Assembly: GCA_016839555.1 (NCBI GenBank)
Contig: JAEOUA010000009.1
Span: 61,221-125,220 of the forward strand
DNA: 64,000 nt
Direction: 5' to 3'
From: Promethearchaeota archaeon
GTDB lineage: Archaea; Asgardarchaeota; Lokiarchaeia; Sigyniarchaeales; SOKP01
Position numbers and translations under genes: made by a program. How positions within the stretch are numbered: the first letter of the stretch is position 1; each line of letters starts with the position of its first letter. Below are positions 14,459 to 16,312 of the stretch, one piece after another. The notes below the pieces were generated by a model. The model worked only from the letters and a program-made list of their open reading frames with translations. It made no database searches and was not told where the DNA came from.

Positions 14459-15394
14459 CTAAGGATTGTATATATTTTCTGCTTCTAGATTTGCAAAGTC
14501 CCTTATTATCGTCTCATTACTTTCTAATATCATTTGAAATGCAATATCATAAATTATTTTGGTTTCTTCATCTTCAACAAGAATCTTTTTAATGATGTTT
14601 GCAAATCTGTTATTTATTTTCCACCCTTTAAGATTAAAATCAATATAATCTTCTTTCTTAGGGAAGATTTCTTTAAATATTCGATATCTTTCTTTAATTG
14701 CATTTTGTAAATCAGTTCCTTTAGCATAGGAGGCTATTTTAGAAATAATTTCTTTTCTAATCCTAAATATATTAGAGCCTTCTTCTAAAAGATTCTTTAT
14801 ATCCTTTTCAATTGTCTTTCTAATTTTTTTAGGAATCTGATTTAAAGCATTCAGATATTGTTTTTTTGAACTATAATGAGAAGAAGAAAATTTAATAGAT
14901 TCTTCCTTTAATTTAAATGTTTCTATGAATCGATTTTTCAGTTTATTAAATTCTTCCTTTAATAGTTCTGATAATTCTTTATTTAGATTTTTACCTTCGA
15001 AAAAAATATCCTTAAACTTGTCTATTATTGTTTTTTGAAATAAATTTAAAAATTTTAGATATTCTTTTTTATAAGTAGGATTATTTAGCATTTTATAGTA
15101 GTTCTCGGCAGTTTTCCAAATGAGGGCATCGCATACTCTCTTTTTTAATTGTGTACCTTTAGATAGATCTTTCTTGGTTAATTGAGGAGATTGAAAAGAT
15201 ACTGGTTGATCTGTGGTTAGAGTCTCATTAAGAGAAACAAAATAATTTTTAATATCATTATTTTTTTCAATATAACTACTTTCTCCTGCCATAATTCCTT
15301 TTAAGCGATTTAATTCTTCATATAGTTTTTCTTTTAAATCGTTAATAGTATTTTTATGAGAGAGGTAATCGTTTCTTGTATTTTCTTCTTTCAT
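14459..15394 (-). CDS. Hypothetical helical protein
   Basis: 311-codon ORF with no recognised motif. Confidence 0.6.
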   Translation of the reverse strand: MKEENTRNDYLSHKNTINDLKEKLYEELNRLKGIMAGESSYIEKNNDIKNYFVSLNETLTTDQPVSFQSPQLTKKDLSKGTQLKKRVCDALIWKTAENYYKMLNNPTYKKEYLKFLNLFQKTIIDKFKDIFFEGKNLNKELSELLKEEFNKLKNRFIETFKLKEESIKFSSSHYSSKKQYLNALNQIPKKIRKTIEKDIKNLLEEGSNIFRIRKEIISKIASYAKGTDLQNAIKERYRIFKEIFPKKEDYIDFNLKGWKINNRFANIIKKILVEDEETKIIYDIAFQMILESNETIIRDFANLEAENIYNP

Positions 15395-15507
15395 GGTTTT
15401 TATACCTAATTTAGCTTTTAAAAGATATACACTAAATTAATATTAAAAAAATAAGAAAAAACTATCTGTGGTATAATTTTAGAAGATCGAGATAAATAAA
15501 TAAAAAT

Positions 15508-15805
15508 TGTAGCCTAAAGCACTAACGCTTTTTTTTCATTTTTTGGATTTATCCATAAAATCTAAAAAGTTCTCTCGTGTTAGGCATTTTGGGGTAAACA
15601 TAATCATATATCCTGCCTGGGTTGCTGACTCAAAGCTCATCGCATCGGTATCCACCTTTGCTCAATTAAGAGCCCATTTATACAGGATTTTTCATGTTAT
15701 TGATTATTTGATTCAGAATGTATGCAGTTGGTTTGCACTTCATACTCATCTTTTAATCGTATGAGCCCTCGAAACGCAAGTATTCCTTCATCATCAATAC
15801 CCCAA
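15508..15805 (-). ncRNA. Multi-hairpin H/ACA pseudouridylation guide RNA with K-turns and C/D boxes
   Basis: Three stem-pocket-stem-K-turn hairpins, each followed by ACA or AUA at 15, 14 and 16 nt from the pocket top. Pockets are complementary to conserved 23S rRNA sequence. TATA-like box about 25 nt upstream and a T-rich tract directly after the last ACA. Confidence 0.8.
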
Positions 15806-15964
15806 TTAAATTAAGTTAATACAAAGTTAAAAATATTTGTCTCATAATGTAAAATTAACAAGATTATTGATCTTTTTCAACATGAATTAGAAGAAGCACC
15901 TAATTTTACAAAGAGGAATCAATAAATCATATTACAATAATAAATATTACTTTCATAGTTTAAT

Positions 15965-16312
15965 CTACTTCGGCATATAAAATTTACATACAGTACATTG
16001 GTAAGCTCTTAATCTCCTATCGGTTCCTAATATTATTAGTTTCTCCTTAAGAGATGAGCCACATTTCGGACATGTCTTAGTGAAGTTTTCCCTTATTGAA
16101 TTAAGGACTTTTTGGATACCATCCTCTACTCTTAAGATTTCTTTGGCATTATCGATGATTTTATTAGCAGATATAATCCCAATACCCTTGATCCAAGCTA
16201 ATTCCTCAGGTTTTGAATTTGCGATCTCCTCAATAGTCTTAATACCCGCTTTATGAAATCGTTCTGCTGATTTTGGACCTATACCCTTTACGCGAGAAAT
16301 TTCCTTGGACAT
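15965..16312 (-). CDS. Helix-hairpin-helix protein with C-terminal zinc ribbon
   Basis: VKGIGPKSA and IKGIGIISA HhH motifs, then CPKC...CTVC. Confidence 0.8.
   Translation of the reverse strand: MSKEISRVKGIGPKSAERFHKAGIKTIEEIANSKPEELAWIKGIGIISANKIIDNAKEILRVEDGIQKVLNSIRENFTKTCPKCGSSLKEKLIILGTDRRLRAYQCTVCKFYMPK

Follow-up and report, generated by a model that had tools for sequence, protein, structure and literature searches.

A conserved C/D-type kink-turn predicted at the base of an H/ACA guide hairpin in Asgard archaea

We analysed a box H/ACA hairpin and its flanks at 15797-15708 on the minus strand of a 64,000-nucleotide stretch of DNA (the window) from a Promethearchaeota archaeon (contig JAEOUA010000009.1). 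An initial annotation had noticed that this hairpin lies between words resembling the C and D boxes of methylation guide RNAs, and had proposed a composite RNA with the topology of scaRNAs (small RNAs specific to Cajal bodies), possibly directing dual modification. The region is the 5' part of a single-copy, three-hairpin H/ACA guide RNA of ~300 nt, and the motifs around hairpin 1 are predicted to form a conserved kink-turn (K-turn) at the base of the hairpin. Judged from comparative sequence analysis, the RNA would be a new architectural variant of archaeal H/ACA small RNAs (sRNAs) and not a dual-function composite. We consider it probable (roughly 70%) that the basal K-turn is an additional docking site for L7Ae, which would clamp or scaffold the base of hairpin 1.

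Results

A kink-turn at the base of hairpin 1

The words on which the annotation rested are all present on the minus strand: AUGAUGA at 15794-15788, the ACA of the hairpin at 15721-15719, and CUGA at 15716-15713. UUGAU (15797-15793) is indeed complementary to AUCAA (15712-15708). Read 5' to 3', the strand runs GGGG (15803-15800), UA, UUGAU, GAU (15792-15790), GA (15789-15788), A, GGA (15786-15784), the H/ACA hairpin, ACA, UUC, U, GA (15714-15713), AUCAA, and AUAAUCA (15707-15701). The parts of the predicted K-turn are as follows.

15793-15797, minus strand: 5' strand of the C-stem, UUGAU, pairing with AUCAA at 15712-15708
15790-15792, minus strand: three-nucleotide bulge GAU (L1-L3), 3 nt long in all parsed homologues
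15784-15789, minus strand: 5' strand of the non-canonical stem, with G15789 and A15788 in predicted sheared pairs, A15787 at position 3b, and GGA (15786-15784) pairing with UUC (15718-15716)
15708-15718, minus strand: 3' (non-bulged) strand, with UUC at 15718-15716, U15715 at position 3n, G15714 and A15713 in predicted sheared pairs, and AUCAA at 15712-15708

The former D box and closing stem together make up the 3' strand at 15708-15718. By sequence, the element has a Watson-Crick C-stem, a 3-nt bulge on one strand, and tandem G.A/A.G pairs leading into the non-canonical stem. The sheared geometry of the G.A pairs, the kinked conformation and the binding of L7Ae at this basal site are predicted from these features.

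The closing stem proposed earlier was retained, whereas the register in which it had been combined with the C box is internally inconsistent, as UUGAU overlaps that box by 2 nt. If the UUGAU/AUCAA stem is formed, the second GA of AUGAUGA must be the sheared one, not the first. The resulting pairs are G15789.A15713 and A15788.G15714, and the first GA of the 'C box' falls in the bulge. This register, the only one compatible with the UUGAU/AUCAA stem, is also the one common to all homologues. We rejected the canonical C/D register, in which the first GA of AUGAUGA pairs with the D-box GA and is accompanied by U.U and G-C pairs. It leaves one closing pair in the window, and it is not shared by the homologues, which are without the extra 3 nt. 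These nucleotides belong to a lineage-specific 3-nt expansion at 15790-15797 (UGAUGAUGA) relative to all relatives, and the C-stem UUGAU/AUCAA is wholly different from the AAAY/RUUU of the relatives. Because of this expansion and the different C-stem, the perfect C box of the window is regarded as accidental.

BLAST searches against 40 relatives returned 15 full-length homologues with 68-78% identity. When 16 homologues were aligned with MAFFT, without fitting to a structure or model, 4/4 C-stem pairs had changed on both sides while the stem remained 96.9% paired. In the same alignment the GGA/UCC stem was 97.9% paired, and slid controls gave a whole-structure pairing of only 26-41%. All four C-stem pairs covaried again in 27 diverse homologues, and pairing of the GGA/UCC stem was 94-98% across sets, with AGA/UCU compensation.

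A motif-anchored parse was then applied to 60 homologues, 57 of which were parsed. The 5' GA was found in 57/57 and the 3' GA in 54, with AA in the other 3. The bulge was 3 nt long in every parsed homologue (GAU in 28, AAU in 23, others in 6), and its last position, L3, was U in 56/57. As many as 20 different complementary sequence pairs served as C-stems, among them AAAC/GUUU, AAAU/AUUU, AAGU/GCUU, AGAC/GUCU, CAAC/GUUG, and UUUG/CAGA. Position 3b.3n was free, with 12 combinations and U.U in 20/57, and the spacing to the ACA was fixed as ACA-UCC-N-GA in almost all homologues. What evolution has kept is a generic K-turn: a covarying stem of 4-5 bp, an NNU bulge, tandem G.A/A.G pairs, a free N.N position, and GGA/UCC after the ACA. 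Canonical RUGAUGA was found in 13/60 homologues and CUGA in 23/57, only UGA-N-G and C-N-GA being conserved. The extra K-turn suspected at the hairpin base, with its covarying stem and GA/AG pairs, is borne out by these comparisons, and the idea that its boxes are conserved, canonical C and D boxes is not.

The C/D words alone are no better than chance, and it is the comparative evidence that carries the feature. The window contains 25 instances of RUGAUGA (RTGATGA in DNA), and shuffles give an expectation of 22.9 +/- 5.5. A genome-wide regular-expression search with a loose nested pattern gave 564 matches, against ~340 in shuffles; 12 were left after H/ACA filters, and only the present locus was convincing.

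Distribution among Asgard archaea

The distribution was followed with two covariance models. R1, a model of the two-hairpin unit, found 119 of the 131 genomes sampled from the same family (f1) to carry a single copy each, and gave weaker matches in four other families of the class. R2, comprising hairpin 1 and its flanks, was run on 151 genomes sampled across the Asgard phylum and matched 73 of them, including 4/4 genomes of family f8, 18/19 of f17, 5/5 of f21, 6/7 of f27, and 2/3 of f26. Families f2 and f7 retain the K-turn, and f5 retains its core. Of 23 homologues fetched from outside the class, 17 (f8, f17, f18, f21, f26, f27, and f31) had the K-turn core with new C-stems, such as UUAGC/GCUGA, UUGGC/GCUGG, UUUGC/GCAAG, and AACGC/GCGGU. 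On the strength of these comparisons, we take the K-turn feature to be old and widespread in Asgard archaea.

Rfam searches produced no match at gathering score in the window, and no H/ACA family at E <= 10 in 15300-16000. The HgcG model (RF00064) and the other Rfam H/ACA models gave no match there, and RF00065 (snoR9/Pab21) gave none in the genome. In one f31 locus (L105, genome G254), the K-turn hairpin is followed by a hairpin-3-type pocket (CACGAGAGAGC) within a long enclosing helix, with no hairpin-2-type guide, an order that points to reshuffled modules. Genome G054 gave two matches on the small contigs C465 and C124, one of them at a contig end; they are probably an assembly duplicate and not a second gene.

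Hairpin 1 as a pseudouridine guide

The hairpin enclosed by the K-turn has the layout of an archaeal H/ACA unit.

15722-15783, minus strand: H/ACA hairpin 1, its lower stem formed by 15778-15773 with 15729-15723 and supported by covariation
15772-15767 and 15736-15730, minus strand: pocket strands UCGAGG and GCAAACC of hairpin 1, matching 23S rRNA
15766-15757 with 15747-15737, minus strand: 'GA stem' of ten pairs, ending in a kink-loop (K-loop; GA at 15758-15757 and UGA at 15748-15746)
15719-15721, minus strand: ACA box of hairpin 1, in a ~4x4 internal loop opposite AAUA (15783-15780)

Covariation was found in both the lower and the upper stem, and the ANA motif is kept, as ACA in nearly all homologues and as AUA or AAA in a few. 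The GA stem runs from G15766.U15737 to A15757.G15747; PMC4652768 gives ten pairs as the length in all full ribonucleoprotein (RNP) structures. The distance from the top of the pocket (G15736) to the ACA is 15 nt, within the 14-16 nt range of the ANA motif. UCGAGG and GCAA(ACC) pair with 5'-GGCUUGC-UU-CCUCGA-3' in the 23S rRNA of the same genome (contig C12). We take the target U to be the equivalent of E. coli 2496, from our own alignment to the E. coli sequence. Hairpin 1 is predicted to be an ordinary pseudouridine guide to the peptidyl-transferase region of 23S rRNA. Its lower stem is short: ~6 bp with a bulge in the window, and 6 bp for the majority of relatives. Hairpin 1 is not followed by an H box; the sequence there reads ACAUUC or ACAUCC. 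Contig C12 begins inside the 23S rRNA gene (match at ~570-650), which leaves the rRNA operon incompletely assembled and makes any target search in this genome incomplete.

The genome carries one L7Ae gene (TIGR03677, 138 bits, above the cut-off), as well as genes for Nop10, Nop5, and fibrillarin. A second L7Ae paralogue was considered for the basal site and dismissed, the other PF01248 match being an ordinary L30e.

Absence of a methylation guide

We then asked whether the K-turn could belong to a C/D guide. The 10-12 nt 5' of the D-like GA consist of UCC, which pairs with GGA, the ACA box, and the 3' strand of the lower stem. These bases covary with their intramolecular partners and vary between species; column 40/101, for example, switches between G-C, A-U, and U-A. 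Because the bases 5' of the D-like GA are either paired intramolecularly or part of the ACA, they leave no room for a methylation guide. With no free antisense element at that place, the composite, scaRNA-like reading with dual modification loses its ground.

Spacers of archaeal C/D sRNAs are ~12 nt long and single-stranded, and archaeal C/D RNPs reportedly need a spacer of that length. In the present RNA, ~28-29 nt lie between basal K-turn and apical K-loop on either side, and they are base-paired. The sole internal K-motif of hairpin 1 is the H/ACA K-loop, and a C'/D' motif is lacking. The C- and D-like strands would be joined by the K-turn and its stem, the D-like strand being internal and not 3'-terminal. 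Apart from a K-turn, the features that define C/D RNAs, namely conserved boxes, single-stranded spacers of the usual length, and an antisense element of at least 10 nt, are missing from the predicted structure. Nor does the RNA contain the complete C/D domain of a U85-type scaRNA, its hairpins being archaeal single units with K-turns. These observations indicate that the basal K-turn does not guide 2'-O-methylation and is not the second, C/D half of a composite RNA. One part of the earlier proposal, an extra L7Ae site for stabilisation, agrees well with a maintained K-turn of the L7Ae-binding sequence type; for its other part, a Nop5-fibrillarin site, we found nothing that requires it.

Architecture of the three-hairpin transcript

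Hairpin 1 is the first module of the transcript, whose remaining elements are listed below.

15607-15688, minus strand: H/ACA hairpin 2, with an internal K-turn and the ANA motif AUA at 15609-15607
15701-15707, minus strand: 5' strand of helix C, AUAAUCA, pairing with UGAUUAU (15606-15600) and enclosing hairpin 2
15600-15606, minus strand: 3' strand of helix C, UGAUUAU, the 'AUGAUUA' of the initial annotation
15800-15803, minus strand: 5' strand of the terminal clamp, GGGG, pairing with CCCC (15594-15591) and enclosing hairpins 1 and 2
15591-15594, minus strand: 3' strand of the terminal clamp, CCCC, identified from family alignments
15508-15585, minus strand: H/ACA hairpin 3, with the lower stem GCCUAA/UUAGGC, U-ACA and then a U-rich tract, outside the clamp
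15827-15833, minus strand: putative TATA-like promoter element UUUUUAA, read in the sequence and centred ~27 nt upstream of G15803

Helix C is 90-97% paired in the family, and in other Asgard families it is replaced by GGGUUGA/UCAACCC, GCGUUGAAG/CUUCAGCGC, AAGCCG/CGGCUU, or CCGUUGG/CCAGCGG. Complementary pairs that are wholly replaced in this way provide strong covariation for a plain helix C in the predicted fold. A second K-turn had been suggested to bracket hairpin 2 between AUGA and AUGAUUA. We rejected it for helix C: AUGAUUA is a strand of this Watson-Crick helix, and the 5' AUGA (~15695-15692) lies in a spacer variable in length and sequence. The lower stem of hairpin 2 covaries (CCUG/CAGG versus CUGCAA/UUGCAG), and its other stems are supported too. 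Helix C starts right after the ANA of hairpin 2 in the window and in homologues L103, L098, L102, and L096. An ACA box that lies between two helices is unusual for H/ACA RNAs.

The family alignments show GGG...CCC conserved at either end of the two-hairpin unit, and it was not seen in more distant Asgard classes. The RNA is predicted to fold into a three-way junction composed of the GGGG/CCCC clamp, the C-stem of the K-turn, and helix C. Hairpin 3 (fold energy -17.6 kcal/mol, z = -2.35) and the U-tract lie outside this junction, and the 5' part of hairpin 3 is conserved in the alignment of homologues. RNAalifold recovered the H/ACA stems and not the K-turn or the outer helices, which were therefore specified by hand and then tested by pair counts.

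Alignment of the homologues revealed an A/T-rich block of the TTTWWAA type at an equal distance upstream. A spacing of ~27 nt suits an archaeal promoter. From the G.U pairs in the helices and the TATA-like box at about -27, the RNA strand was assigned to minus. In the other Asgard classes inspected, an A/T-rich, promoter-like stretch upstream suggests that the RNA starts at the C-stem or immediately ahead of it. The G+C content of the genome is 29.6%.

Discussion

Proposed role of the basal kink-turn

On the basis of these results, we propose that 15797-15708 is the first module of a three-hairpin box H/ACA guide RNA in an Asgard (Loki-type) archaeon. A standard kink-turn would arise from UGA-N-GGA, at the RNA's 5' end, and UCC-N-GA, in the linker that follows the ACA. 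A fourth copy of L7Ae would sit on it, besides those at the three apical K-turn or K-loop sites, and would lock the 5' end onto the linker between the hairpins. Cbf5 has to hold a lower stem that is short (~6 bp) and A/U-rich, and such a basal clamp would extend and stabilise it. With helix C and the GGGG/CCCC clamp as its other arms, the K-turn could complete a compact three-way junction and so hold hairpins 1 and 2 at a set angle. Protection of the 5' end against exonucleases is a further possibility.

Several points weigh against an L7Ae clamp at this site. We infer the presence of L7Ae at the basal site, and with it the clamping or scaffolding role, from the motif. L7Ae bound only 3-4 bp below the ACA could clash with the PUA domain of Cbf5. 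The C-stem is only 2-3 bp long in f18 and f21. The minimum free energy fold of the single window sequence is unremarkable (z about -1.3), but this is expected because sheared G.A pairs are not modelled. Finally, the K-turn is dispensable in some lineages: fetched hairpin-1 homologues of f12 (L107 and L115), f10 (L108, L109, and L117), f19 (L116), and f6 (L068) are without it. These orthologous guides keep the UCGAGG...GCAA pocket. In f12 they have a plain GCUCAG/CUGAGC closing helix and a G+C-rich lower stem of 10 bp, and in f6 the lower stem is 9-11 bp. A longer, G+C-richer lower stem or a plain closing helix may compensate for the missing K-turn in f12 and f6, a trend drawn from a small sample with no phylogenetic control. 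It fits a compensating, stabilising role of the K-turn where one is present.

We weighed these data against other explanations. The K-turn might act mainly as a signal in biogenesis or turnover. L7Ae-bound K-turns define and protect the ends of C/D sRNAs; here L7Ae would mark or protect the 5' end, or direct processing of a polycistronic three-hairpin transcript, or couple guide-RNA abundance to free L7Ae, and the K-turn would not be architectural in the active RNP. This proposal suits the apparent start of the transcript at or just before the C-stem in other Asgard classes. It also draws on the regulation by L7Ae of mRNAs with C/D-like K-turns (PMC5539422) and on the long and short forms of composite sRNAs in Pyrococcus and Sulfolobus, described in PMC2651775 and PMC2377435. 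We judge it unlikely, as the register to the ACA is fixed in almost all homologues and the K-turn is integrated in a three-way junction with helix C, both of which speak for a function within the folded particle. Also quite unlikely, in our estimate, is a true composite C/D-H/ACA RNP, in which the basal K-turn recruits L7Ae and Nop5-fibrillarin with the apical K-loop as its C'/D' partner. Such an RNP would be a scaRNA-like dual particle, its C/D part being either a structural core or a methylation guide with a non-standard antisense element. The K-turn is of the C/D type (UGA-N-G/C-N-GA) and occupies the transcript's 5' end as a box C would, the spacers between basal and apical K-motifs are nearly symmetric (~28/29 nt), Nop5 and fibrillarin are encoded, and tandem H/ACA and C/D transcripts exist in Pyrococcus and the Sulfolobales (PMC2651775 and PMC2377435). 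However, neither RUGAUGA, CUGA, nor the U.U pair is conserved, the bases 5' of the D-like GA are bound by intramolecular pairing and the ACA, the base-paired spacers are more than twice the ~12 nt of archaeal C/D RNPs, and the D-like strand is internal.

The element might instead be a protein-free tertiary motif, or an imperfect helix in which GA/AG mismatches are tolerated in the closing stem without L7Ae. The plain helix in f12, the absence of the K-turn in f10, f19, and f6, and the unconstrained 3b.3n position would agree with this. Yet an imperfect helix would be expected to drift to Watson-Crick pairs or to lose its bulge, and the tandem GA/AG and an exact 3-nt bulge ending in U are kept across families while the stems change, which makes this explanation very improbable. 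Simple co-occurrence of C/D-like words by chance in an A/T-rich genome has the least to commend it and is practically negligible. RUGAUGA does occur at chance rate in the window, the loose nested pattern is common genome-wide, and the perfect 7-nt C box is peculiar to the lineage of this genome. But more than 70 genomes, drawn from many Asgard families, preserve the K-turn through compensatory changes. For the K-turn core, chance is refuted by the covariation; it would hold only for the extra 'AU' that completes the C box. A broader conjecture, very doubtful at present, is that Asgard archaea ancestrally couple a C/D-type K-turn with an H/ACA module. The basal K-turn would then recruit Nop5 with or without fibrillarin, or L7Ae would touch the PUA domain of Cbf5, which with the enclosing helices would give two H/ACA units a defined bipartite geometry that foreshadows the eukaryotic two-hairpin H/ACA small nucleolar RNP and the scaRNAs.

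Comparison with known RNAs

The archaeal multi-hairpin H/ACA sRNAs of the HgcG group (Pab40/Pf7/Pho40/Afu4, Rfam RF00064) are described by Muller et al. 2008 (PMC2377435). Pab40/Pf7/Afu4 form the closest family in function and layout: they share with the present RNA three H/ACA motifs per transcript and targets in domain V of 23S rRNA. Common to each motif are also the lower stem, the pocket, the K-turn or K-loop in the upper stem that receives L7Ae, and an ANA placed ~14-16 nt from the target U. Three elements set the Asgard RNA apart from them: the basal K-turn that underlies the ACA of hairpin 1, the Watson-Crick helix around hairpin 2, and, in its family, the GGG/CCC clamp. The consulted portions of PMC2377435 and PMC4652768 make no mention of any of the three.

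H/ACA and C/D units also occur in tandem on one transcript, as in Pab21/Pf1 of the Thermococcales (snoR9, RF00065; PMC2377435). In Sso1/Sto1/Sac1 with Sso-159/sR4/sR39 of the Sulfolobales, a complete C/D sRNA lies at the 3' extremity (PMC2651775). As in our RNA, an H/ACA unit and a C/D-type K-turn are combined in one archaeal molecule, and both parts share L7Ae, as is predicted here. Unlike the tandem RNAs, which have their own guides in the 3' C/D sRNA, the present RNA places the H/ACA hairpin between the strands of the K-turn and has no C/D guide module. The comparison with the topology of Pab21 follows the wording of the papers and not its sequence. The archaeal precedents we found for C/D and H/ACA units on one RNA are tandem, not nested. 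In U85, the C, D, C', and D' boxes are reportedly complete and accompanied by a functional methylation antisense element, and its two-hairpin H/ACA domain is said to carry H and ACA boxes as well as CAB boxes. Our RNA resembles U85 in topology only, an H/ACA element standing between a 5' C-like and a 3' D-like element. It differs in having a K-turn core alone, no antisense element, and a single archaeal-type hairpin as the enclosed unit.

C/D-box-like K-turns that bind L7Ae outside C/D sRNAs are found in Sulfolobus mRNAs (PMC5539422), and PMC4245976 describes an L7Ae-binding K-turn in archaeal RNase P RNA. In these RNAs, and by prediction in ours, a C/D-like K-turn is an L7Ae docking or stabilising site without methylation guiding; the difference is that our host is an H/ACA guide already provided with L7Ae sites, in which the K-turn abuts the ACA box. 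Literature searches on Asgard archaea together with snoRNA, pseudouridylation, or L7Ae yielded no publication about guide RNAs of this group, in a limited library that leaves the absence of such work unproven.

In existing descriptions, an archaeal H/ACA guide hairpin has one L7Ae site, at its apex, and its ACA tail is free. In the predicted structure, a basal K-turn abuts the ACA and draws the RNA's 5' end into a three-way junction, and compensatory changes have maintained it in many Asgard families. Asgard archaea are the closest known prokaryotic relatives of eukaryotes. If L7Ae binds the basal site, the stoichiometry and architecture of the particle would change. Questions would then arise as to how the PUA domain of Cbf5 reads an ACA flanked by helices on both sides, whether the clamp offsets the short, A/U-rich lower stems of mesophilic Asgard RNAs, and whether multi-hairpin H/ACA RNP organisation predates eukaryotes. 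For annotation, the case is a warning that an H/ACA hairpin is not a dual-function guide simply because C/D-like words flank it. R1 and R2 provide usable covariance models for an RNA family missed by Rfam 15.

Other features of the locus and genome

The genome also encodes full-length actins (447 bits) and an ESCRT-II protein. A 73-aa open reading frame (ORF) with a TTG start (15543-15764, plus strand) runs antisense across hairpins 1-3. It is almost certainly spurious, because the substitutions in the RNA are compensatory and not codon-like. Directly upstream of the RNA gene, at 15965-16312 on the minus strand, lies an ORF of 115 aa with a C-terminal, zinc-ribbon-like CPxC...CxxC motif.

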